Source of the DNA: Alphaproteobacteria bacterium
GTDB taxonomy: Bacteria; Pseudomonadota; Alphaproteobacteria; CAAHEQ01; UBA3637
Length of the DNA: 64,000 nt
NCBI GenBank assembly: GCA_017960645.1
Contig: JAGCYU010000022.1
Span: 141-64,140, forward strand
Direction: 5' to 3'
Both the position numbers and the translations under genes were made by a program. Within the stretch, counting starts at the first letter, position 1; each line of letters starts with the position of its first letter. The notes beneath the pieces were generated by a model. That model saw only the letters and a program-made list of their open reading frames with translations, was not told the origin of the DNA and did not search any database. This document shows, piece by piece, positions 1 to 32,519 of this stretch.

Positions 1-74
1 TCGTTCCGGGGCTCGGAGAGGGGAGAAATTCCTTGCCGGCCAGAGCTTGGGGCACGGGAACCTCGTTCCGGGGG
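1..74. repeat. Short GC-rich REP-like repeat (TCGTTCCGGGG twice; hairpin GGAAC-CTC-GTTCC)
   Basis: TCGTTCCGGGG at 1-11 and 63-73; the first copy may be cut by the window edge. Confidence 0.4.
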
Positions 75-116
75 TTGAAAAAACATTGTCATTAAAAAAA
101 AGAAAGGGGAAAGAAA

Positions 117-620
117 ATGAAAAAGTATTTATTATTAACAGCATTGTTTTTGACAACAACGGCTCAAGCAGATTTCTGGTCGAACTGTACGACCTATGGC
201 GGCACAATCATCACCGCAAATAAATATGGCACCGATGCCAACGGCAACAACTTGGATAAAGGCGGCCTGTGCAACGATCCAAACGATCCCAATCTAACGA
301 ACAACTGTAATGGCAAGAAGTTTTGTGTAAGCGGTAACAGAATGAATTGGTGGAGCGCTTTTACTTGGTGTGAAAGTATAGGGGGACAGTTGGCGTCTTT
401 TGAGCATATGTGCCCAGGTACTCAAGCTCTTAATGGAAACGCTTGCCCCAATCTAACAGCAGTTTATAACATAACCAAAACTTATTTGTGGAATTCAGTA
501 AAACTTCCCAACGGGATGATATTGAATGTATCGCCTCAAACAGGGATTACACGAAACTATTTTGCAAACGAGTCGTATGATTCAAAGGGGTCGGTATTCG
601 CCACATGTGAAGAAAAATAA
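117..620 (+). CDS. Secreted Cys-rich protein with C-type-lectin-like motif
   Basis: Signal peptide ending TAQA; purine-rich RBS; MNWWSAFTWCESIGGQLAS resembles the CTLD WxxAxxxCxxxGGxLAS motif. Confidence 0.65.
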   Translation: MKKYLLLTALFLTTTAQADFWSNCTTYGGTIITANKYGTDANGNNLDKGGLCNDPNDPNLTNNCNGKKFCVSGNRMNWWSAFTWCESIGGQLASFEHMCPGTQALNGNACPNLTAVYNITKTYLWNSVKLPNGMILNVSPQTGITRNYFANESYDSKGSVFATCEEK

Positions 621-640
621 AGGCTGACCTGTCTATGCCG

Positions 641-1114
641 TCAATTGATGTCGCCCAAATAGATCGTCTCTGTTTGGGTTTGCAACTTATCTGGATCTTG
701 CAAATAAGGAACCAGTTTGCGCGGGAAAAATTTAATCTGTTCCAATTCGGATGCCGTTTTCCAACAAATGACTTGGTTTTTATCCGGCTCGGTTCCTTGC
801 GCCAGGGTTGAAAAGTCCTTCACGTGGCACAAAAACATCAATTCTGTTTGTTGAAAATTCGGATCATCAAACTCCATATCGTGGTTTTTAGCCAAATAAT
901 CGCGGATAAACAGCAATGTGCCTATGTCAGCCTCAAGCCCCAGCTCTTCTTTTAATTCCCGATGTAAAGCGCCGTGTATAGTCTCACCAAAATGATGTCC
1001 GCCACCGGGCAGTTTATAAAACTCACCGCGGCCTTGATTCACCTGCTCTATTAAAAACTTACCATCTTTGATGATAATGGCTTTAATGGAATACCTGAAA
1101 ATAGTATCTGTCAT
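641..1114 (-). CDS. NUDIX hydrolase
   Basis: Nudix box PGGGHHFGETIHGALHRELKEELG. Confidence 0.9.
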   Translation of the reverse strand: MTDTIFRYSIKAIIIKDGKFLIEQVNQGRGEFYKLPGGGHHFGETIHGALHRELKEELGLEADIGTLLFIRDYLAKNHDMEFDDPNFQQTELMFLCHVKDFSTLAQGTEPDKNQVICWKTASELEQIKFFPRKLVPYLQDPDKLQTQTETIYLGDIN

Positions 1115-1329
1115 GATCTATTGCTCCTGTGTACTGGAATAACCTTGCTTTTAAAATACTCTATATTGGTACAAAAATCAATTTTTAATTTTATCACCTG
1201 TTTATTCGACCGGTAAAATATCAAACAAAGAAAATCACTCAGAAAAATAATATCCCCACTCACATTTCAAAAAACTTGACAAAACCAATATCTTATAGTA
1301 TAATTTGCTGTGCAAAGGGAGTTAACCGC

Positions 1330-1557
1330 ATGCAAAATAAAAATATGATGACAAAAGAAGATAAACAAATGCAAAAAGGCACTAGAGAAGCGATCAAATT
1401 TCTTGCTATTTTGGGCGCAATAGTCGTAACTGGCGGCGCTGTAGGCTCTGCCTTCATGGTGCATGAAACAGGCGATGGAATCGGAAGCGGTTTTGTGCTC
1501 GGCTCTATTATAACAGCGGGGATTCTTGCCATCTCGCACTCAATAACAAACGATTAA
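1330..1557 (+). CDS. Small two-TM membrane protein (75 aa)
   Basis: TTGACA-17-TATAAT promoter (1276-1304), RBS AAGGGAG, ATG 1330; two Gly-rich hydrophobic segments. Confidence 0.7.
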   Translation: MQNKNMMTKEDKQMQKGTREAIKFLAILGAIVVTGGAVGSAFMVHETGDGIGSGFVLGSIITAGILAISHSITND

Positions 1558-1579
1558 TACCCCGCTAGGGGCAAAAATT

Positions 1580-1720
1580 AAACCGTCCCAAAACGGACGG
1601 TGTTTTTATTGGTACAACTCGCTTAACGAATACCGAGCCAACAATTTAGCGGATTTTAAAAAGTTGGCATTACGAGTGGAATCGTTAAACTTTTAAGTTT
1701 TTTCACCACAAAAAACTTGC
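1580..1720. repeat. Cassette junction repeat 1 (terminator hairpin + TGGTAC core + left arm)
   Basis: 1580-1632 is identical over 53 nt to 2891-2943; the arm is also similar to 3798-3890. Confidence 0.9.
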
Positions 1721-2926
1721 TTTTTCAAAATGATTATGTTAGGGTATATATTATAGTCAAGGAGATAGAATGAAAAAACTATTTTGTTGTCTGACATTAC
1801 TACTATCAGTAAGTACAATAGCTTTTGCCAAAGAAAATTCCTTGTGTAAAGGTCTTGATTCATCAAGCAAAGCCTGCAAGGTGGTGGCTGACGTTATGTA
1901 CTCTGGCTTTATCAATGGGTATATTAACAGGATGAAAAGATCTGTAACACATCCATATGCTAAGGATAAATTAGTCCAAGATGTAAAAAATTTAATATCA
2001 CGTGATGCTTTTGATTCCATTTTCTATAAATGTGGAGAAACAATTACAGATCAGAGTTTAGCCCATAACTGTTTCGAAGAAGAAATTTTAAAATCTGCTA
2101 TGGTTCGTCATCTGTCTGATTCCACTTCTTCTACAATAACTTCTAACTCCGATAACGCTACTGTTTATGGCATTGGCTGTCAATATAATGAAATATATTT
2201 ACCTATATTTACATATTATCAAAAAAAGTCTACCGATGAAGTAATAAAAATTCTCACCAATTTATCCAATCAGCAAATTTTAGAAAAAGATAATTGCTCT
2301 GCTGCTGGCATTACTGGCTTTATTACTGGATTATTCATTGAACAGCCAGCACTGTATGATCAAATCCATAAACAAAATTATTCAGAAAAAATGCGAAAAC
2401 TCATTGAATTTTCTCATGCAAGTTCAAAAATTATAGATTGGGAAAAAATAGCCAATAATAAATCTTTTTTTGTAAAAACTCTAAATACTTATTGGGGACT
2501 ATTTTTTGCAACAGGAAATGAAACCCCCATAAAAGCAATTGCGAATTTTGCCTACCATAATAAAAGTGAAATAGCGTTACGTGCTAAGATGTCTTTAATC
2601 TTAAATGGTACACAACACCCTATTGTAAAAAAGATTATTGATAAAAATGAATCATAATTACCTCTTGGGTTGAAGGCAACCCATTCAATTAATTGATTTA
2701 TAAAGAAATAAATTTTAAGAGTTCGATAATTTACGGATTTTAGGCCTTTTTTATACCCCCTTGTATGTAAATTGGCTAACGCACAATTTATCCCTCCCTT
2801 TGTTCGGGACCGCCTACGGCGTCGTGTCTGCGGCGTTACATTGCACGCCTTGCCACCAAACCAGCACAAGCGTTTGAAAACAAAAAAGAAAAACCGTCCC
2901 AAAACGGACGGTGTTTTTATTGGTAC
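1610..2926. mobile_element. Non-autonomous tRNA-Leu cassette 1 (1311-bp unit)
   Basis: Bounded by TGGTAC cores at 1610 and 2921; conserved left and right arms; one cargo gene; no integrase. Confidence 0.7.
1770..2657 (+). CDS. Secreted hypothetical protein (cassette 1 cargo)
   Basis: RBS AAGGAG; signal peptide ending AFA; 295 aa; family not recognised. Confidence 0.75.
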   Translation: MKKLFCCLTLLLSVSTIAFAKENSLCKGLDSSSKACKVVADVMYSGFINGYINRMKRSVTHPYAKDKLVQDVKNLISRDAFDSIFYKCGETITDQSLAHNCFEEEILKSAMVRHLSDSTSSTITSNSDNATVYGIGCQYNEIYLPIFTYYQKKSTDEVIKILTNLSNQQILEKDNCSAAGITGFITGLFIEQPALYDQIHKQNYSEKMRKLIEFSHASSKIIDWEKIANNKSFFVKTLNTYWGLFFATGNETPIKAIANFAYHNKSEIALRAKMSLILNGTQHPIVKKIIDKNES

Positions 2927-3017
2927 AACTCGCTTAACGAATATCGAACCAATCATCCAGAGGATTTCAAAAAATTGGCACAGCAAATTGATCTATTGAA
3001 GTTTTAATTTTAGTTGC
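2720..3017. repeat. Cassette junction repeat 2 (long right arm + hairpin + core + left arm)
   Basis: 2720-2926 matches 5457-5662 with about 8 differences by eye. Confidence 0.95.
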
Positions 3018-3803
3018 AAAATTTTTCAGTTTACCTTAGCATCTACCTTAAAGGAAAAAATCATGAAATTATTTTTAAGTGGTTTGAAATTTGGAATGTT
3101 GCTACAAATTGCTGTGGGCCCTATGTGCTTAATGGTGTTCAATACAGCGAAAAATACAGGGTTCTTAACTGCTTTATCTTTAATCTTAGCAATTACACTC
3201 GTGGATGCGCTTTACATCACTTTAGCTGGCTTAGGTGTAAGTAAATTATTAAAGGGACAAAAGCGTACAAAAATTTTAAAAATGATTGGTGCTTTTGTTT
3301 TAGTATTTTTTGGACTTAGCATTATTTTAAATGTGGTCGGCATCAATGTCGTTCCGGGATTAAATTTAACCCCAACTGCAACAAGCATTTTTGTCCAAGG
3401 TTTGATACTAACACTATCTAATCCACTTACCATAGTTTTTTGGACAAGTGTTCTTGTAGATAAAATTATAGAAGATAAATTAAAAAACAAACAATTAATT
3501 ATTTTTTCATTTGGATTGGTTTCCGCAACATTATTGTTTTTGTCCGGCGTAGCTATACTCGGCAGGACTCTTTCAACATTTATCCCGGCTATGATTTCTG
3601 ATGTATTAAATATTGCTGTTGGTCTTTTAATTATATTTTTTGGGATTAGATTATTTGTTCGTCATTAAAAACACAAATCACATTCCAAGAGTTCGATAAA
3701 TTACGAATTTTGGCACTTTCGGAAGTGGATTTATCGAACCAATACAAGCACTTGGAAACAAAAAGAAAAACCGTCCCAAATCGGACGGTGAATTTTTTGG
3801 TAC
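2921..3803. mobile_element. Non-autonomous tRNA-Leu cassette 2 (877-bp unit)
   Basis: TGGTAC cores at 2921 and 3798; short right arm with GTTCGATAAAT/ATTTATCGAAC inverted repeat. Confidence 0.7.
3063..3668 (+). CDS. LysE-family amino acid exporter (cassette 2 cargo)
   Basis: N-terminal IAVGP motif, LTLSNPLTIVFW, about 6 TM segments, 201 aa. Confidence 0.9.
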   Translation: MKLFLSGLKFGMLLQIAVGPMCLMVFNTAKNTGFLTALSLILAITLVDALYITLAGLGVSKLLKGQKRTKILKMIGAFVLVFFGLSIILNVVGINVVPGLNLTPTATSIFVQGLILTLSNPLTIVFWTSVLVDKIIEDKLKNKQLIIFSFGLVSATLLFLSGVAILGRTLSTFIPAMISDVLNIAVGLLIIFFGIRLFVRH

Positions 3804-3890
3804 AGCTCGCTTAAAGAACATCGGGCCAACAATTTAGAGGATTTCAAAAAATTGGCTCTGCAGCTGAGTCGTTAAACTTTTAAGTTTTTT
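3690..3890. repeat. Cassette junction repeat 3 (short right arm + hairpin + core + left arm)
   Basis: AGTTCGATAA start, ACCGTCC...GGACGGT hairpin 3770-3789, TGGTAC 3798. Confidence 0.9.
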
Positions 3891-3911
3891 CCATCGAGGA
3901 AAAAGCAAGGA

Positions 3912-5393
3912 CTACCGTCCGCCGGGGCCATCATTGCCACCATTACCACCCAATCCTAGAATATGGCTAAACAACCCCTTAATATCTCCAGACTGTGAGG
4001 ATTTTTGGGAAGATTGATTGGGGTGATTTCTTTTAAGCTCCTCCCGCAGGCGAGAACGTAGTTTAGTCATCATTTCTACTGTGTGTGTCTCTAGGCTCAT
4101 AGTGGCCATTAATGCATTCACAAGGTCATTTTTATTCATGGTATTAAGAGCAAGCGTCCGCAATTTTACGTAGTGAATTCTTAACCGTTCTTCCTCTAAT
4201 ATATCGGTCAAATCTTCCTTTTGAAAAACTATTTTATCAAGATATTCTTCATCTAGACAAATGTCTTCTGCATCTGGTAAATTAAAATGTCGTGTCTTAG
4301 GATTTCTCAGTATAAAACCTTGATTTTCTGGGGAGTCATCATCAATGATAAAGCCTGTAAATAAATACCCGCGATAATCTTCTTTGGGAACAACAGGGAA
4401 TTTTTCTGTGTCTACTCCCGCCTTTTTCAATCGTTCAGTTTGTTTTTTGATATCGCCACCGGTAAAGATTGTCACTTTTTCATATTTAGAAATTGCAACC
4501 AATGTTTCATACAGGCCTTCTCTAAAATTCCCTTCATCATCAAATAAAGTACCATCGATATCAACCCAAATACCGCTGACTTCACCTTTTGGGTGTTCCC
4601 TTAGCACTTTTTGAAACTTTTCAACTTGCGCAAGGGAGTTATGAGAGTTACTTGGCATAACACAGTTTTGTATCTTTGCATCAGGGTATTTTTTCAATAT
4701 ATCTTTCCATTCTGATGTACTGATTGGTGTTGGTATGCCTTGTTTTTCAGTGTCAACTTCAGCATATCTTTCAATCCAATCTCGTAGTGTTGTTGCATTG
4801 AGAAAGGTTTGTATTTCTTTTGAAGTAATGAATGAATTCTCGCCATATGAAGAATCAACAAACGGCAAATTAGCAAACTGTGGAGAACGAAAACTTTTGG
4901 GCATAACCAGTGGAGCATCAAGGCCATTTTCTTTTAATTGATCCCAGTTATACACCATAAAACCAGCAATCACACGTTCCATGGAATTAATTGCGTATGC
5001 ATCACCAACCTCAGCTGTCTTCTTTGCCAAAAAATCAGCTAATTGAAGTGCATATTCAATATTTTGTTTGTTTAAAAGATAATTCCTCGCATTGTGTTGA
5101 TTGATATCATATTCAAAACCATCGCTGATATGACATGAATGGCGCCAATAACCAAACTCTTGACCTTGTTCTTTTTGTGTTTTGCCTGTCAAATCAGGGA
5201 AACCCTCTATTATGGCATTGATAATTGCTTTTTTTTGAGATGGCTTTAACAAAGCAGGATCATAATCCACAGATGCGGGATCAAATAATCGCATTAAAAC
5301 AGAACTGTCCACCTCACCACGTTTGAGATAAGATGTTTGAATAATTTCGGGAAAAAGTTTAAAAATTTCTGGATTAATATCTGTTACTTTCAT
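3912..5393 (-). CDS. Hypothetical protein with HAD-superfamily domain (cassette 3 cargo)
   Basis: HAD motifs IWVDIDGTL, IFTGG, FIIDDD; RBS AAGGAG; low-complexity C-terminal tail ending GGR. Confidence 0.7.
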   Translation of the reverse strand: MKVTDINPEIFKLFPEIIQTSYLKRGEVDSSVLMRLFDPASVDYDPALLKPSQKKAIINAIIEGFPDLTGKTQKEQGQEFGYWRHSCHISDGFEYDINQHNARNYLLNKQNIEYALQLADFLAKKTAEVGDAYAINSMERVIAGFMVYNWDQLKENGLDAPLVMPKSFRSPQFANLPFVDSSYGENSFITSKEIQTFLNATTLRDWIERYAEVDTEKQGIPTPISTSEWKDILKKYPDAKIQNCVMPSNSHNSLAQVEKFQKVLREHPKGEVSGIWVDIDGTLFDDEGNFREGLYETLVAISKYEKVTIFTGGDIKKQTERLKKAGVDTEKFPVVPKEDYRGYLFTGFIIDDDSPENQGFILRNPKTRHFNLPDAEDICLDEEYLDKIVFQKEDLTDILEEERLRIHYVKLRTLALNTMNKNDLVNALMATMSLETHTVEMMTKLRSRLREELKRNHPNQSSQKSSQSGDIKGLFSHILGLGGNGGNDGPGGR

Positions 5394-5456
5394 CGTAATC
5401 TCCTTGTTGTTATATGAACATTATACCACAGATTTTCAGAATGACAAGCTTTTTTT

Positions 5457-5662
5457 AGTTCGATAATTTACGATTTTAGGCCCTTTTTATACCCCCTTGT
5501 ATGTAAATTGGCTAACGCACAATTTATCCCTCACTTTGTTCGGGACCGCCTACGGCGTCGTGTCTGCGGCGTTACATTGCACGCCTTGCCACCAAACCAG
5601 CACAAGCGTTTGAAAACAAAAAAGAAAAACCGTCCAAAATTGGACGGTGAATTTATTGGTAC
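5457..5662. repeat. Cassette junction repeat 4 (long right arm abutting tRNA-Leu)
   Basis: Near-identical to 2720-2926. Confidence 0.95.
5618..5648 (-). terminator. Rho-independent terminator of tRNA-Leu (copies at 1582, 2893, 3770)
   Basis: ACCGTCC stem-loop followed by a T-rich run on the minus strand just after CCA. Confidence 0.8.
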
Positions 5663-5743
5663 CTCTGGTCGGACTTGAACCAACACTCTATTGCTAGAAA
5701 CAGATTTTGAGTCTGTCGCGTCTACCAATTTCGCCACAGAGGC
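5657..5743 (-). tRNA. tRNA-Leu(CAA)
   Basis: GCCTCTG...CAGAGGT-A-CCA acceptor; anticodon arm ACAGA-CTCAAAA-TCTGT; long variable arm; GTTCAAG T-loop. Confidence 0.97.
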
Positions 5744-5750
5744 TTTTTTG

Positions 5751-5791
5751 TTGACAAAGGCCATTATAGCGCATTATAATTTACTTGTCAA
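5751..5791. promoter_or_regulatory. Overlapping divergent sigma70 promoters (tRNA-Leu / SDR)
   Basis: Minus strand TTGACA(5791-5786)-17-TATAAT(5768-5763); plus strand TTGACA(5751)-18-TATAAT(5775-5780). Confidence 0.75.
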
Positions 5792-5803
5792 GGAGATTTT
5801 TTC

Positions 5804-6580
5804 ATGTTGTTTAAAACTTACACACCTAAAACAATTTTTATCACAGGCGCTTCCAGCGGGCTTGGCGCGGCGTTGGCCAAAGAATACGCCACCGAATCAA
5901 CAACCTTACATCTATGTGGACGCAACAAAGAACGCTTGGACAAAACAGCGGCTTTATGCAAAAGCCGTGGGGCGAAAGTTTACACCTATCTGTTTGACGT
6001 TCAAAAAGCCGACGAGGCACAAAAGGCATTAGAAAAAGCCTATCAGCGCACACCTTTGGATCTGGTCATTGCCAACGCTGGCGTATCAGGTGGCGTATTG
6101 GGTGATAAAGAAACTGCAGATGCAACACGCCGCATTATGCAAACGAATATTTTTGGCATGCTAAATACTGTTTTGCCTGCACTGTCTTTGATGAGAAAAC
6201 GCCGTAAAGGGCAAATCGCTATTGTTGCTTCATTAGCGGGCTATCGCGGCATGGCCAGCTGTCCGGCCTATTCTGCCAGCAAAGCCTGTGCCAAGGCGTT
6301 TGGAGAAGCTTTATACGGGCAACAAAAATCCCGCGGTATCCGTGTCACAACTATCTGTCCCGGTTTTATTGAAACACCTTTAACGGACAAAAACAAATTC
6401 TATATGCCATTTTTGATGCAGGCTCCTCAGGCAGCGTATATCATCCGCAAACGTTTAATGCATGCGCCCGCCATTATTGCTTTCCCGTGGATGATGCGCT
6501 TTGGTGCGTGGATTGGATCATGTTTGCCCAGCTGTATTGCCCTGCCCTTATTTGCGCTTTTTCCCAAAAAAGAAAAATAA
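5804..6580 (+). CDS. SDR family oxidoreductase
   Basis: TGASSGLG, NAG and YSASK motifs. Confidence 0.93.
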   Translation: MLFKTYTPKTIFITGASSGLGAALAKEYATESTTLHLCGRNKERLDKTAALCKSRGAKVYTYLFDVQKADEAQKALEKAYQRTPLDLVIANAGVSGGVLGDKETADATRRIMQTNIFGMLNTVLPALSLMRKRRKGQIAIVASLAGYRGMASCPAYSASKACAKAFGEALYGQQKSRGIRVTTICPGFIETPLTDKNKFYMPFLMQAPQAAYIIRKRLMHAPAIIAFPWMMRFGAWIGSCLPSCIALPLFALFPKKEK

Positions 6581-6633
6581 CTTATAGACATTTGCTCTGT
6601 TTTTAGCTAGAATAGGACAAAAAGGAGAAGAAT

Positions 6634-7341
6634 ATGTTTAAGAGTAAAGACAAAAATTGCAAATCCTGTGACAAAGGCTGTTCTTCTTGTCAAAGGTATC
6701 AAGAAAAAGCTTTGGAATTGGAAGTTGATGAAGAATTACGCCAAGACAAACTGAACGAATTTTGGAAAAAATATCGTTACATCATTTGCGGGGCTATTTT
6801 TTTAGTCCTTGCCATCACAGCCGCCACAGAGATTTATCAAACATGGTGGGCAAAGGTTCGTTTGAGTGAATCTGATACTTTTGAACAAGGAGTCGTGGCC
6901 GCCTACAGCGGAGATTATGAGAAATCTCGTCCCTATTTTCAACAGCTGGCCAAAGATGGAAAAACTGGATATCGCTACCTGGCACAAATAGAGCTAGCAG
7001 GTTTGGCTTTACAACATAATGACAAAGAACAAGCTTTATCATTATTAAAAGCCGTGATGGATTCTTCTGCACCAAAGGCTTTACGGTCCGTGGCAACGCT
7101 GTCCTATGTCGGCAATCAAATGGATACGATGGATTCGGCGCAAGCATTATCCTTGCTAAAACCTCTCTTGGCTGAAACTTCCTTTGTGGTGCCTGCCAGC
7201 CAACTAGCTGTGGCTGTTTACATGAAATCAGATCAAAAAGATCAAGCGAAAGCGTTATTGGACCAAGCTTTAAAACTGCCGGACTTAACCGCCGAAGCAA
7301 AGAATAAATTGGAAACATTACAAACTATGATCGGACAGTAA
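6634..7341 (+). CDS. TPR-like YfgM/DUF2659 membrane-anchored protein
   Basis: EVDEELRQD...W, single TM; conserved position before bamB-der. Confidence 0.85.
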   Translation: MFKSKDKNCKSCDKGCSSCQRYQEKALELEVDEELRQDKLNEFWKKYRYIICGAIFLVLAITAATEIYQTWWAKVRLSESDTFEQGVVAAYSGDYEKSRPYFQQLAKDGKTGYRYLAQIELAGLALQHNDKEQALSLLKAVMDSSAPKALRSVATLSYVGNQMDTMDSAQALSLLKPLLAETSFVVPASQLAVAVYMKSDQKDQAKALLDQALKLPDLTAEAKNKLETLQTMIGQ

Positions 7342-7344
7342 AAC

Positions 7345-8595
7345 ATGAAAAATTTATTGTGTATTTTGTTGTGTTGTACTTTTTTAACCGCCTGTTCCAG
7401 CGACAAACGTATTGCACCAAAGGAAGGGCGGATATCCTTGTCTCCTCAAGCAGAGTTGGTATCAACTAAAAAGAACATCCAACTAGATACAGCAAAAAAT
7501 CCGTCTGAATGGGGTCATTTATATCAAAATGCACAAAATAAACACCCCCATATCCAAGGGATAACAAACAAAACAAAACTTTGGACTGTTGATATAGGAG
7601 CCAATTATTCTGAGCCTGTGCCACAAAGCCCTATCGTTGTATCAAATGATGCAGTATATACCTTAGACGGAGCCTTTGGCGTCAGTAAAATTGATAAAAA
7701 AACAGGACAATCCGTTTGGCATAAGAAATTACCTGTCAGTTCAGGAAAAGGAATTGGATTAACAACTGATGGCAATCAAATTTTTGTCATTTTTGATCAA
7801 GGAACGTTAGTAGCTTTAAAATCGGATGGAGAAATTGCTTGGCAAAAAGAGTTAGCTATGCCGATACGAACAACACCAACTTTCAATAATCGATTATTGT
7901 TTGTGCTATCTGCCAAAAATGTGATTTTAGCTTTGGATAAAAAAACTGGCAAAGAAGTGTGGCGTTATCAAACAACGCCTTCTGATACTTTTCTGCAAGG
8001 CATGGCACATCCTGCCCTGTCTCAAAACATTTTAATTGTTCCATTCACAACGGGTGAAGTTATTGCATTTGACGCTGCATCTGGCATGTTGATATGGTCG
8101 CAAACAATGATTGGAAATCAACTGGAAGATTTATATGAGCTACCACATATTCTGGCCGCACCAGTCATTAGCGGCAATACTGTTTATTTGGCAGGAAATG
8201 CAAATTTATTAGGTGCTTATAATTTACAAACAGGGCAAACAAAATGGACACATAATATTGGCTCTGTTGTGACGCCTGTTTTATCTGGAAATGTGCTATT
8301 CGTACTAAGCAAGAATAACCACTTACTGGCTTTAGAAGCAACCACCGGTCGTATCTTTTGGGATAAAGAAATACCCCATAATAAAAAAACAAACTGGCAA
8401 GAGTTAGGGTTAACAGACAATCACTTGGTGCTGTACAGTGATGATAAAGAGCTCTACATTGATTCAAAATCAGGTGAAATTCAACAAGAACTGGATAAAA
8501 AGAATATCATTGCCGGTCCGATTAGCACAGAAAATACAATTTTTTATCTGACGAACCGAGCAAAGCTACAATCTTATCAACAGGTAACAAAATGA
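7345..8595 (+). CDS. bamB: PQQ-like beta-propeller lipoprotein (BamB-like)
   Basis: Lipobox LTAC; repeated ALDxxTGxxxW motifs; synteny with der. Confidence 0.8.
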   Translation: MKNLLCILLCCTFLTACSSDKRIAPKEGRISLSPQAELVSTKKNIQLDTAKNPSEWGHLYQNAQNKHPHIQGITNKTKLWTVDIGANYSEPVPQSPIVVSNDAVYTLDGAFGVSKIDKKTGQSVWHKKLPVSSGKGIGLTTDGNQIFVIFDQGTLVALKSDGEIAWQKELAMPIRTTPTFNNRLLFVLSAKNVILALDKKTGKEVWRYQTTPSDTFLQGMAHPALSQNILIVPFTTGEVIAFDAASGMLIWSQTMIGNQLEDLYELPHILAAPVISGNTVYLAGNANLLGAYNLQTGQTKWTHNIGSVVTPVLSGNVLFVLSKNNHLLALEATTGRIFWDKEIPHNKKTNWQELGLTDNHLVLYSDDKELYIDSKSGEIQQELDKKNIIAGPISTENTIFYLTNRAKLQSYQQVTK

Positions 8596-30669: not shown

Positions 30670-31123
30670 CTGAATTCTCCTTTTTACTACGCAAATACGA
30701 CGTCATTTTTTCCAACAAATCGTTTAAAATTAACACATCTTGAGTATAACCAAAAGTATCCCCACTCTCCATTATTTCTTCATCGGCCCCTGGTACAATT
30801 TCGATATGCTTAGCGCCCAAAATACCATCTGTTTCAATGGTTACAGAAGAATCCACAGGCAGCGCATACTTTTTATCCAACGCCAACTCAACCTTAATTC
30901 TATAACCATCAGTAAAATGTTGAGAAACAACATGGCCTACCTTTAACCCAGCCATACGTACATCCGCTCCGTTCATTAAACCGTCGGACTTATCAAAAGC
31001 GGCATACAAAGTAAAATCTGTACCATCTTGCGTTAAACCCGATTTACCATGCAAAGAAAACAAGATACAGCCCAATAAAAATACAAATAAAAAGCCAATC
31101 CATGTTTTTTGAGTATCGCTCAT
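30650..31123 (-). CDS. MCE-domain protein MlaD paralog
   Basis: DGLMNGADVRMAGLKVG, GILGAKHIEIVPG. Confidence 0.88.
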   Translation of the reverse strand: MSDTQKTWIGFLFVFLLGCILFSLHGKSGLTQDGTDFTLYAAFDKSDGLMNGADVRMAGLKVGHVVSQHFTDGYRIKVELALDKKYALPVDSSVTIETDGILGAKHIEIVPGADEEIMESGDTFGYTQDVLILNDLLEKMTSYLRSKKENSDEKESD

Positions 31124-31220
31124 TTTAAACTTCCTTATGTGTTATATTGGATACTATTATTTTTAAATTGTCAAGTATTCTTTCTTGACGCTGACACTTT
31201 TTTTGACTACTATAAAAACT

Positions 31221-32519
31221 ATGAAAAAGATTATTTATATTTGGCTGACAATCCTTATGTTTTGGAGCTTACCAGCGCATGCGATTTCCCTGATTCGAGA
31301 TACGGAAGTTGAAGAGGCTGTACTAGCATGGGTTCAAGTTATTTTTAAAGCTGCCAATTTAGAGCCTGAAAATGCACGCATTATGTTGGTTAACGACCCC
31401 AGCATCAATGCTTTTGTAGCAGGCGGTCAAACTATTTTTATTCACACGGGGCTAATTACCCAATCCAAAATGTTAGATGATTTAATGTTTGTTTTATCCC
31501 ATGAAACAGGCCATATCGTTGGAGGTCATGTGACACGTGGTATGACGGCCTATAAAAATGCACAAACAGCCACGTTAATTTCCACTATTTTAGGAGGCGT
31601 CATTGCTGTGGCAGCTGGTCGCCCTGATGCAGGAATTGCTGTAATGGTAGGCAGCCAATCCTCTGCTTTAGGTAGCTTTTTAACCTATCGTCAAACCGAA
31701 GAAAGCTCGGCTGATCGTATAGCGATTGATATTATGAATAAACTCGGCTATTCCATGCAAGGATTTACCAATACAATGCAAGCCATCCAGCATTTAGAAC
31801 GCATCAATATGTCCGAGGACGGCGGATATCTGCGTACACACCCTTTATCCCAAACGCGTATGCAAGATGTGGCTCGTTTTACAAAAAATGCACCAGCGCC
31901 CAAGCCAAATAAAACTTTTGATCGTATTCGGGCAAAGTTAATAGGCTTTATGAACGATCCAAAAGCCAATTTAAAACAGTACCAAGATAATTCTTTAACC
32001 TCACAATACATTCGCGCGATTTCTTTGTATCGCTTAAGCAAACGTGACGAGGCCATCGCTTTACTGGATAAAATAATCACCGTTGAACCCAACAACCCTT
32101 ATCTATACGAATTGAAAGGACAGTTTTATTTTGAAACTGGCGATATTCCAAAAGCCATTACTAACTATGAAAAAGCAAATAATTTAAAACCCAACGCTCC
32201 GTTAATTGAAACAGCTTTGGCTCAAAGCTATTTGGAAAACAAAACAACAAGCAATGCCACAAAAGCCCTAAAGCTGCTTCAACATGTGGTTTTGGTCGAA
32301 GAAGAACCTGTGCTTCCTTGGCGCTTAATGGCCACCGCCTATGATGTGTTAAAACAGCCCATAAACGCTCAATACGCAATGGTTGAATATAATTTATCAA
32401 TCGGCAAAACGACTGTTGCCTTAACTGCCGCCAAAAAACTCACCAAGACAATGCAAAAGGATAATCCGCACTACCAGCGTTTATTGGATATCATTGCTTT
32501 GGGCGATAAAAAAGATTGA
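31221..32519 (+). CDS. M48 metalloprotease with TPRs (BepA/YfgC-like)
   Basis: Signal peptide, INAFVAGG, HETGH, THP, TPR C-terminus. Confidence 0.92.
   Translation: MKKIIYIWLTILMFWSLPAHAISLIRDTEVEEAVLAWVQVIFKAANLEPENARIMLVNDPSINAFVAGGQTIFIHTGLITQSKMLDDLMFVLSHETGHIVGGHVTRGMTAYKNAQTATLISTILGGVIAVAAGRPDAGIAVMVGSQSSALGSFLTYRQTEESSADRIAIDIMNKLGYSMQGFTNTMQAIQHLERINMSEDGGYLRTHPLSQTRMQDVARFTKNAPAPKPNKTFDRIRAKLIGFMNDPKANLKQYQDNSLTSQYIRAISLYRLSKRDEAIALLDKIITVEPNNPYLYELKGQFYFETGDIPKAITNYEKANNLKPNAPLIETALAQSYLENKTTSNATKALKLLQHVVLVEEEPVLPWRLMATAYDVLKQPINAQYAMVEYNLSIGKTTVALTAAKKLTKTMQKDNPHYQRLLDIIALGDKKD

Follow-up and report, generated by a model that had tools for sequence, protein, structure and literature searches.

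Recombinase-less cassettes stacked at a tRNA-Leu gene as a probable offshoot of a tRNA-targeting mobile-element family in gut Alphaproteobacteria

The window analyzed here, a 64,000-nucleotide stretch of contig C15 from the metagenome-assembled genome (MAG) of an Alphaproteobacteria bacterium, contains at positions 1,580 to 5,743 a tandem array of three single-gene units that abuts the CCA end of a tRNA-Leu(CAA) gene. We read this array as a side branch, without a recombinase of its own, of a little-known group of mobile elements that target tRNA genes, and not as an integron. Sequence comparison makes it probable that the units are a stack of three integrative cassettes that carry no recombinase and descend from large serine recombinase (LSR) elements inserting at the ACCA ends of tRNA genes. 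The arms that flank each cargo gene match consecutive parts of an LSR gene on either side of the hexamer TGGTAC, and in relatives intact LSR genes read through this hexamer into the antisense strand of a tRNA gene. An initial annotation, made from the letters of the window, had proposed discrete recombinase-less cassettes placed at the tRNA CCA end by site-specific recombination at a very short core, a proposal that agrees with the results below; its central inference of trans-dependent cassettes at a tRNA end was largely right. Its comparison with an integron does not extend beyond the layout, as IntI, attI and attC are all missing and the cassettes, which lie in mixed orientation, have signals of their own.

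Layout of the array and origin of its arms

The 64 kb contain four copies of the hairpin sequence ACCGTCC-N6-GGACGGT (at 1582, 2893, 3770 and 5629), against 0.00 copies expected from 100 shuffles, and TGGTAC lies 8 nt past each copy, at 1610, 2921, 3798 and 5657. These junctions delimit three units, which measure 1311, 877 and 1859 bp. Every unit contains the two arms together with a single long, unrelated open reading frame (ORF), oriented +, + and −; the initial annotation had described the junctions and the units correctly. In reverse complement, the final TGGTAC gives the 3′ end of tRNA-Leu(CAA), and its core at 5657-5662 doubles as the last six bases of that gene. The arm of about 90 nt after TGGTAC, present three times, belongs to a 128-nt repeat family (1573-1700, 2884-3011 and 3761-3888, at spacings of 1311 and 877), whose second and third copies are 80% and 74% identical to the first. 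The arm before the hairpin takes a long form at 2712-2926 and 5449-5662 (96% identical over 191 nt) and a short form with a single window copy at 3682-3803. All four window junctions have about 36 bp in common, comprising the hairpin and TGGTAC, whereas across species only TTGGTAC is constant, with TTGGTGG at tRNA-Met and tRNA-Lys sites; the core of about 6 bp in the initial annotation is therefore too short for the window and holds for the comparison between species. The features of the array are as follows.

1582-1615, + strand: junction 1, with hairpin 1582-1601, T-rich spacer and TGGTAC 1610-1615
1610-1700, + strand: left arm 1 (P′ arm), matching the last 28 codons of an LSR gene from TGG TAC, stop 1694-1696
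1770-2657, + strand: cargo 1, 295 aa, signal-peptide-like N-terminus, without a Pfam family
2712-2926, + strand: right arm 1, long form, with a GC-rich insert (Mid) 2753-2862, hairpin 2893-2912 and core TGGTAC 2921-2926
2921-3011, + strand: left arm 2, recombinase tail of 28 codons, stop 3005-3007
3063-3668, + strand: cargo 2, LysE-type translocator, 201 aa (PF01810, E 1e-27)
3682-3803, + strand: right arm 2, in the canonical short form (131 nt in the length census), with hairpin 3770-3789 and core 3798-3803
3798-3888, + strand: left arm 3, recombinase tail of 25 codons, then stop
3912-5393, − strand: cargo 3, 493 aa, no Pfam family at E<=0.01
5447-5420: promoter-like site of cargo 3, 11/12 matches, before the 493-aa gene
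5449-5662, + strand: right arm 3, long form, with Mid 5489-5598, hairpin 5629-5648 as the predicted terminator of the tRNA, and core 5657-5662
5657-5743, − strand: tRNA-Leu(CAA), the target gene and the only Rfam match in 1-8000

With the order P arm-core-P′ arm, the two internal junctions (2 and 3) are attP-like, and the one at the tRNA (junction 4) is attR-like. Because a right arm is absent to its left, junction 1 is the distal end of the array, and it reads either as attL-like or as a truncated right arm.

From TGG TAC, every left arm encodes a conserved peptide of 25-28 residues followed by a stop codon. Over 38 unique left arms, all selected by a peptide profile, the entropy by codon position was 0.85/0.54/1.06, with its maximum at third positions, and the synonymous share of single-base codon differences was 0.36, compared with 0.20 and 0.15 in the other frames. 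All 44 matches to the tail peptide in the genus fall in open frames of 21-85 residues. At locus L097 (G059:C4), the tail peptide forms the C-terminus of an intact protein of 561-569 residues, P0002, which contains the Pfam domains Resolvase, Recombinase and Zn_ribbon_recom and is thus an LSR. TGG TAC provides the codons for Trp534-Tyr535 of P0002, and the product of window left arm 1 is identical to residues 534-561 at 14/28 positions. By these comparisons, the left arm is identified as the coding 3′ end of an LSR gene. Its interpretation as a sigma-54 promoter or a tRNA-like fold was discarded, as Rfam returned only the tRNA and the arm is coding.

The right arm is colinear with the last ~155 nt of LSR genes, from which it differs by two deletions of ~11 nt, and has a common start point; it no longer contains an open frame in phase with TGG TAC. 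Among 26 unique right arms, 21 measure 131-133 nt, one measures 117 nt and four contain an insert of ~90-110 nt, and the length of 131-133 nt holds at both Leu and Met sites. We accordingly regard the right arm, from its alignment, as a non-coding, decayed descendant of this part of the LSR gene. In intact LSR genes the hairpin ahead of TGGTAC forms part of the coding sequence, and the antisense strand of this coding end folds into a hairpin (dG −15.8, z −3.9) with the same offset from the CCA as the cassette hairpins. Across species the sequence of the stem varies, while the stem itself and the T-run are kept, a pattern in line with a terminator rather than with a core recognised by its sequence. 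The alternative of the hairpin as a recombinase core, with inverted binding sites around a 6-bp spacer, was rejected because the sequence differs between species. The right-arm hairpin is therefore read, by its predicted fold, as a tRNA terminator encoded antisense within LSR coding sequence. The hairpins score as terminators on either strand, with 11 terminator-like sites against 3.1 expected; the replacement terminator that the initial annotation had assigned to each unit stands, with the addition that it is built into the recombinase gene. Homogenisation of right arms within arrays was considered and set aside as weak, mean identity being 0.73 within loci (10 pairs) and 0.69 between them (120 pairs).

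The cargo assignments of the initial annotation fared unevenly. The LysE exporter was recovered by Pfam (PF01810) and cargo 1 has a signal-peptide-like start, whereas the HAD-domain label of cargo 3 found no Pfam support; neither cargo 1 nor cargo 3 matches a Pfam family at E<=0.01. The claim that each cargo gene has its own promoter is supported for the 493-aa gene by its 11/12 site, and not by the overall number of promoter-like sites, which is not above chance (20 against 14.4 expected, sd 4.3). The array carries no recombinase, as noted initially for the whole 64 kb: profile searches with PF00589, PF00239, PF01797 and PF07508 gave no match on C15. To the right of the tRNA-Leu gene, genes for a short-chain dehydrogenase/reductase (SDR), a YfgM-like protein and a BamB-like protein are found in an order conserved across genera of the family.

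Several other repeats were noted along the way. Mid is a GC-rich piece of ~100-110 nt inserted in two of the three window right arms. It is also present at L054 (three copies), L063 (two), L058, L066, L070 and L071, and in relatives it is also found by itself in unconnected positions, one of them between tRNA-Arg and tRNA-Glu at L071, so that it looks like a small mobile insert itself; Rfam has no family for it, and the fold of either strand is no better than that of shuffles (z about −0.5). At the left edge of the window, positions 1-452 (ORF 117-620, 167 aa, signal-peptide-like start) belong to a multi-copy family within the same genome, with copies at 76-86% nucleotide identity on C10 (two), C31, C13, C26, C29 (two) and C22, several of them located at contig ends. 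At L092 (4876-6084; G062:C31), a membrane-protein ORF continues in frame through the hairpin and TGGTAC into a left arm. The resulting 403-aa frame, which ends in the tail peptide, was dismissed as a recombinase; the fusion is probably accidental, yet it illustrates that arms can change the ends of adjacent genes. A tail-peptide tblastn match at C11:20966-21049 lies inside a 397-aa housekeeping-type ORF and was attributed to chance.

Complete elements, distribution and mobility

In six genomes of the family, one of which (G016) belongs to the window's genus, an intact LSR ORF of 524-551 aa overlaps tRNA-Leu(CAA) on the opposite strand. Homology of these six ORFs to P0002 ends at residue 535-536, beyond which they continue into the antisense strand of tRNA-Leu(CAA); the proteins of G016 and G002 have the same Resolvase, Recombinase and zinc-ribbon domains as P0002 in Pfam. 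Recombinase genes whose 3′ ends run into hairpin-TGGTAC, as anticipated in the initial annotation, are thus found in relatives, and because the LSR reads into the antisense tRNA, attP lies inside the recombinase gene. Both forms of the gene were found, with an intact tail in G059 and with a tRNA-encoded tail or an early stop in the six integrated copies, and so were both hybrid junctions, LSR coding sequence-TGGTAC-tRNA at the near end and hairpin-TGGTAC-LSR tail at the far end. The complete element of G081 extends over ~14.7 kb, the far-end LSR tail being located at about that distance, and carries a DNA methyltransferase, restriction-type genes, a NUDIX protein and a helix-turn-helix (HTH) protein; none of the nine ORFs scanned had a Pfam match to conjugation or phage structural proteins.

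More distant LSRs, about 35% identical, likewise run into tRNA-Lys(CTT), tRNA-Leu(CAG) and tRNA-Glu(TTC), and the closest phage and plasmid relatives of the LSR are at most 39% identical. Two database entries, MT837677.1 (L147; LSR into antisense tRNA-Leu(CAG)) and MT836653.1 (L148; into antisense tRNA-Glu(TTC)), were not accepted as evidence for phages, being unannotated faecal 'Bacteriophage sp.' scaffolds; in MT837677.1 ordinary-looking bacterial ORFs follow the LSR, so this is probably bacterial DNA. P0002 has no sequence-related solved structure at E<=0.001. In an AlphaFold model of the LSR built on an 11-sequence alignment, the mean predicted local distance difference test (pLDDT) score was 78 and that of the tail ~58; the catalytic domain, recombinase domain, zinc ribbon and coiled coil are all predicted to precede the split, and the tail is modeled as two low-confidence helices. 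The tail motif is also present in LSRs of 35-37% identity that do not abut a tRNA, and it is therefore an old part of the protein.

The arms are not scattered. In the window genome (1.14 Mb in 32 contigs, 99.45% complete), they are confined to the tRNA-Leu locus and to one tRNA-Met(CAT) unit on C17, in keeping with the expectation from the initial annotation that arms would be found only at tRNA sites. The C17 unit (30718-31757) comprises a hairpin and TTGGTGG, then a left arm, an ORF of 237 aa, a right arm of 133 nt and finally the tRNA, and the tail-peptide tblastn match at C17:31689-31757, which is genuine, corresponds to it. Arrays at tRNA-Met(CAT) carry TGGTGG, the end of that tRNA, in place of TGGTAC; further units of this type were found in G001:C3 (three) and G007:C20 (at least two).

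Across relatives, the tRNA-Leu locus varies in both cassette number and cargo, as the initial annotation had foreseen. Of the 21 genus genomes, 17 have the tRNA-Leu(CAA) gene assembled, and by map reading 12 of these 17 show between one and five cassettes, or at the minimum a right arm, beside it. At the remaining sites we found a complete element with its recombinase (1/17), a truncated right arm only (1/17), a bare hairpin (2/17) and a cut by the contig end (1/17). The same architecture with different cargo is also present in further genera. The left-arm peptide was detected in 45 of 80 family genomes and 11 of 16 genera, and a scan of one genome per species returned 33 tail-peptide loci, every one of them in a MAG from gut or rumen that is labelled Alphaproteobacteria. 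Cargo varies from genome to genome, and 34 of 70 cargo ORFs are homologous to an ORF in the locus of another genome. The three cargo genes of the window have no homologue among the other fetched loci, and cargo 1 has none elsewhere in the window genome.

One cassette provides a direct comparison between genomes. A unit encoding a major facilitator superfamily (MFS) transporter in G017 (L053:11265-12860) is 94% identical over 1602 bp to one at L105 (4408-6006), and on the right side the match stops exactly at TGGTAC. Identity is 98.5% for the cargo proteins but drops to 51% for the flanking SDR, 39% for the YfgM-like and 32% for the BamB-like protein, and alignment of the chromosomal neighbours is limited to ~170 nt (67%); the cassette adjoins the tRNA in one genome and is second from it in the other. 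This comparison indicates that at least one cassette has moved as a unit between distant genomes. On the left, the similarity between L053 and L105 extends into the preceding right arm, so that the left boundary alone is no proof of a site-specific cut.

The recombinases of the window genome itself do not point to a partner for the array. This genome has seven PF00589 matches above the family cut-off, five PF00239 matches and no match to PF01797 (Y1 HUH transposase), and in 21 genomes of the genus no PF00589 match is located inside or beside an array. Four tyrosine-recombinase matches (C31:10102-11886, C29:13886-14434, C14:19319-19771 and C18:3491-4024) are weak, above the cut-off and C-terminal; they lie in frames of ~550-606 residues with paralogues in most genus genomes, and the C31 frame begins directly after a stretch that resembles a translated tRNA end. 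C3:1-816 (L048/L149) is the N-terminus, cut by the contig end, of a different LSR (a 568-aa ORF in a 613-aa open frame) and was rejected as the cognate enzyme, with no tRNA or arms adjacent to it. LSRs of the C3 type are also present in G007:C2, G008:C45, G004:C3, G003:C8 and G018:C62 with 93-99% protein identity across species, and the SDR genes of the species that share them are ~70% identical in nucleotide sequence to that of the window, a difference which suggests that a second mobile element has recently been shared among these species. That no recombinase with Resolvase, Recombinase and zinc-ribbon domains was found in the cassettes or elsewhere in the genome implies that the window units are derivatives and not full LSR elements.

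Proposed mechanism and competing explanations

The sequences show that a complete element carries attP within the 3′ end of its LSR gene, where TGG TAC encodes Trp-Tyr. Insertion splits the gene, so that its last 28-36 codons end up at the far end of the element as the left arm while the remainder reads into the tRNA antisense, and the coding sequence before the crossover supplies the antisense terminator hairpin predicted to replace the one belonging to the tRNA. With arms that are the two halves of the LSR attP, each cassette has the form P′ arm-cargo-P arm and a very short core is expected. In the reading that we consider probable, the cassettes would represent a non-autonomous lineage, excised and inserted at TGGTAC in trans by the LSR of a complete element. 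The left half-site, consisting of the hairpin and the T-rich spacer, would be alike in target and element, which would allow insertion to repeat, and a usable target would be regenerated beside the tRNA each time, giving serial insertion at one site. Target and element half-sites do have a common layout. With no cognate LSR found, the array in the window genome is probably at rest now.

Several observations weigh against this reading. A tblastn search of the window genome with P0002 found nothing at E<=1e-3, although mobile elements may be unassembled, and searches for the cognate LSR family and for PF07508 gave no match there. An intact cognate LSR was seen in only 7 of 80 family genomes as against left arms in 45 of 80, so that most arrays are orphans. 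Textbook serine integrases recombine attP with attB only, and attR-like or attP-like sites are no target for them; serial insertion consequently requires a non-textbook property, and repeated insertion needs either a common left half-site or a different route, for instance homologous recombination between arms. The motif G[GT]TG[TC] at −17..−13, a candidate for such a common left half, occurs in 4 of 5 unique LSR ends and in only 7 of 22 unique right-arm ends; we have dropped it as a strict motif and keep it just as a weak architectural likeness. The selection of the 38 left arms by a peptide profile biases their codon statistics towards an open frame. Finally, public data were available as contigs of four runs, which break at every arm without bridging a junction, and these arm-broken contigs yielded neither a circle junction nor a credible joint left by cassette loss. 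All three cargo genes turn up in two of the runs, which belong to different studies, and the array accordingly looks stable. Two joints that resembled cassette loss were rejected: the shorter side of 1661>3243 has just 20 letters, and in 3728>5656 (X6) the two sides are separated by 70 other letters, while the piece that contains it is 90-95% alike and so derives from a relative.

The cassettes could instead be dead relics, left by complete LSR elements that inserted serially and each lost their recombinase, in which case they were never mobile as cassettes and are not mobilisable now. Accretion followed by decay is the published model for such tandems in the part of the source available (PMC5704250). 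It is in line with the failure to find a cognate LSR in the window genome, with the unchanged array in runs of two studies, with the partial left arms that are all the distal units of G001 retain, and with a decayed LSR remnant at the distal end of L053 (9739-9984; frameshifted tail, 42.7% over 82 aa). Decay should however produce scattered breakpoints, yet 21 of 26 unique right arms share the length of 131-133 nt and the same two deletions at Leu and Met sites alike, and the MFS cassette as a whole retains 94% identity across two genomes in which the flanking proteins have diverged to 32-51%. Serial accretion also faces the same mechanistic problem as cassette insertion, as no attB is left after the first LSR insertion. 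We regard this explanation as unlikely. A role for the arms as portable homology, by which cassettes are exchanged through DNA uptake or transfer and RecA-type recombination at the arms and the tRNA, appears improbable to us. Homology-based cassette exchange has reportedly been proposed for the 'minimal mobile elements' of Neisseria, and the arms offer 69-73% (right arms) to 74-96% identity over 90-190 nt beside a conserved tRNA and SDR flank; the leftward continuation of the L053/L105 similarity into the preceding right arm also counts in favour of such exchange. Sequences of 70-80% identity over ~100 nt are, on the other hand, poor substrates for homologous recombination. The arms are moreover the two halves of an attP, TGGTAC or TGGTGG matches exactly the respective target tRNA, and the uniform length of the right arm suggests a constraint from recognition by a protein.

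Two further explanations can be given very little weight. That another recombinase of the window genome runs the array, whether one of the seven tyrosine recombinases, one of the five small serine recombinases or a hairpin-specific HUH enzyme, gains some plausibility from the number of PF00589 and PF00239 matches in 1.14 Mb and from the hairpin at the junctions. It is largely refuted already, and very improbable, in that no array in 21 genus genomes has a PF00589 match, no Y1 transposase was detected, the hairpin is conserved in structure and not in sequence, and both arms are accounted for as LSR fragments. For related reasons we discarded an IS200/IS605-type reading of the hairpin and fixed cut site (no Y1 transposase; arms that are recombinase pieces) and a REP/RAYT reading (0 PF01797 matches; arms only at tRNA-Leu and one tRNA-Met site). 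An assembly artefact, with repeats collapsed or misjoined in the MAG, would agree with public-run contigs that break at every arm and bridge no junction. It is scarcely credible given that every unique segment was recovered from the runs of two studies at comparable depth (13-16 in X2, about 2-9 in X4) and that the same architecture with different cargo recurs at tRNA-Leu in 12 of 17 genus genomes and in further genera.

A stronger version of the LSR-derived cassette reading, in which genome-reduced gut Alphaproteobacteria contain a working LSR-run cassette system with a target regenerated at every insertion and a tail that reports the state of the element, is put forward tentatively, and we would not at present expect it to hold. 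Each cassette in such a system would consist of a 90-nt recombinase tail, the cargo and a 133-nt arm with a built-in tRNA terminator, and would be mobilised in trans. The left half-site of the element would mimic the terminator region of the tRNA, integration and excision would be the same reaction, and array growth would be unlimited. The exchange of C-terminal tails might report the state of the element and tune recombinase activity, the enzyme having its own tail when free or internal to an array and a tRNA-antisense tail or a stop when beside the tRNA.

Relation to known systems and significance

The closest described layout is that of cis-mobilizable elements (CIMEs) formed by tandem accretion, as in islands of the ICESt1/ICESt3 type, which have lost integration and transfer genes and kept their att sites (available part of PMC5704250). 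The window array has this layout, with att-flanked, recombinase-less units in tandem at the 3′ end of the target gene. The CIME and accretion cases described in that part of the source involve tyrosine integrases and long att identities, in contrast to an LSR and a core of 6-7 bp here. The window cassettes are also far smaller (0.9-1.9 kb, one gene each), and their standardised arms suggest a propagating non-autonomous lineage and not one-off decay. CIMEs arise by decay of integrative and conjugative or integrative mobilizable elements (ICEs/IMEs). For the cassettes, the arms show descent from an LSR element, and there were no conjugation genes among the nine ORFs scanned of the G081 element. 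Tycheposons of Prochlorococcus are cargo elements at tRNA genes that occur in tandem, with newcomers displacing older elements and leaving degenerate remnants; 910 of 937 encode tyrosine recombinases, and their repeats are partial tRNAs (10.1101/2020.12.28.424599, as far as the available text goes). They resemble the present cassettes as tRNA-targeting cargo elements of streamlined genomes piled in tandem. The defining features of tycheposons, a full tRNA with partial tRNA repeats and a tyrosine recombinase, are absent from the array, in which the repeat shares 6-7 tRNA bases only, the LSR of the family is split by its own attP and most units lack a recombinase.

A recombination site within the integrase ORF, such that tRNA integration splits the gene, is known for the SSV-type ('suicidal') integrases of archaea (available part of PMC7253208). 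The complete relatives of the cassettes are similar in having attP inside the recombinase ORF and a gene split at a tRNA. The SSV-type enzymes, in the portion of that source available, are tyrosine recombinases of archaeal viruses and plasmids that are separated into two inactive parts, whereas the proteins found here have serine recombinase domains only. The bacterial LSR, unlike them, sheds merely a C-terminal tail of 28-36 residues.

phiC31, Bxb1 and TnpX/TndX are large serine integrases and transposases whose sites need just very short identity. The LSR family resembles the phiC31/Bxb1/TnpX type in its Resolvase, Recombinase and zinc-ribbon architecture and its short shared core. Recombination of Tn4451 occurs at 2-bp identical sequences, and a well-studied serine recombinase integrates and excises without a recombination directionality factor (both from the available part of PMC5704250). 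A literature search found no description of a serine integrase with a tRNA ACCA-end target, an attP in its own gene and an antisense terminator, although the tycheposon supplements may hold serine cases. The combination of LSR, ACCA-end target, antisense terminator and standardised single-gene cassettes is found in none of the systems compared here, and the search did not return it either, which is no proof of absence.

The hallmarks of integrons are IntI, attI, attC and Pc. As in integrons, the array is an ordered series of small, mostly one-gene cassettes at a single fixed site, with cargo that varies between relatives. It differs in having no IntI-type recombinase at the array, in arms that are fragments of a recombinase gene and not attC, in a tRNA gene as the fixed site, and in cassettes of either orientation that bring promoter-like and terminator signals of their own.

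The LSR family to which the array is traced combines several traits. It targets the near-universal ACCA end of tRNAs, switching among Leu-CAA, Leu-CAG, Met, Lys and Glu, has its attachment site in its own coding sequence and provides a replacement tRNA terminator on the antisense strand. Recombinases with such short, tRNA-defined targets may interest genome engineers. If an occupied site can be re-used, serine integrases would be able to run an integron-like capture of genes, outside their textbook behaviour. For the organisms, the array and its relatives show how gut genomes of ~1 Mb with few classical mobile elements can nevertheless exchange single genes, including those for transporters, exporters and secreted proteins.

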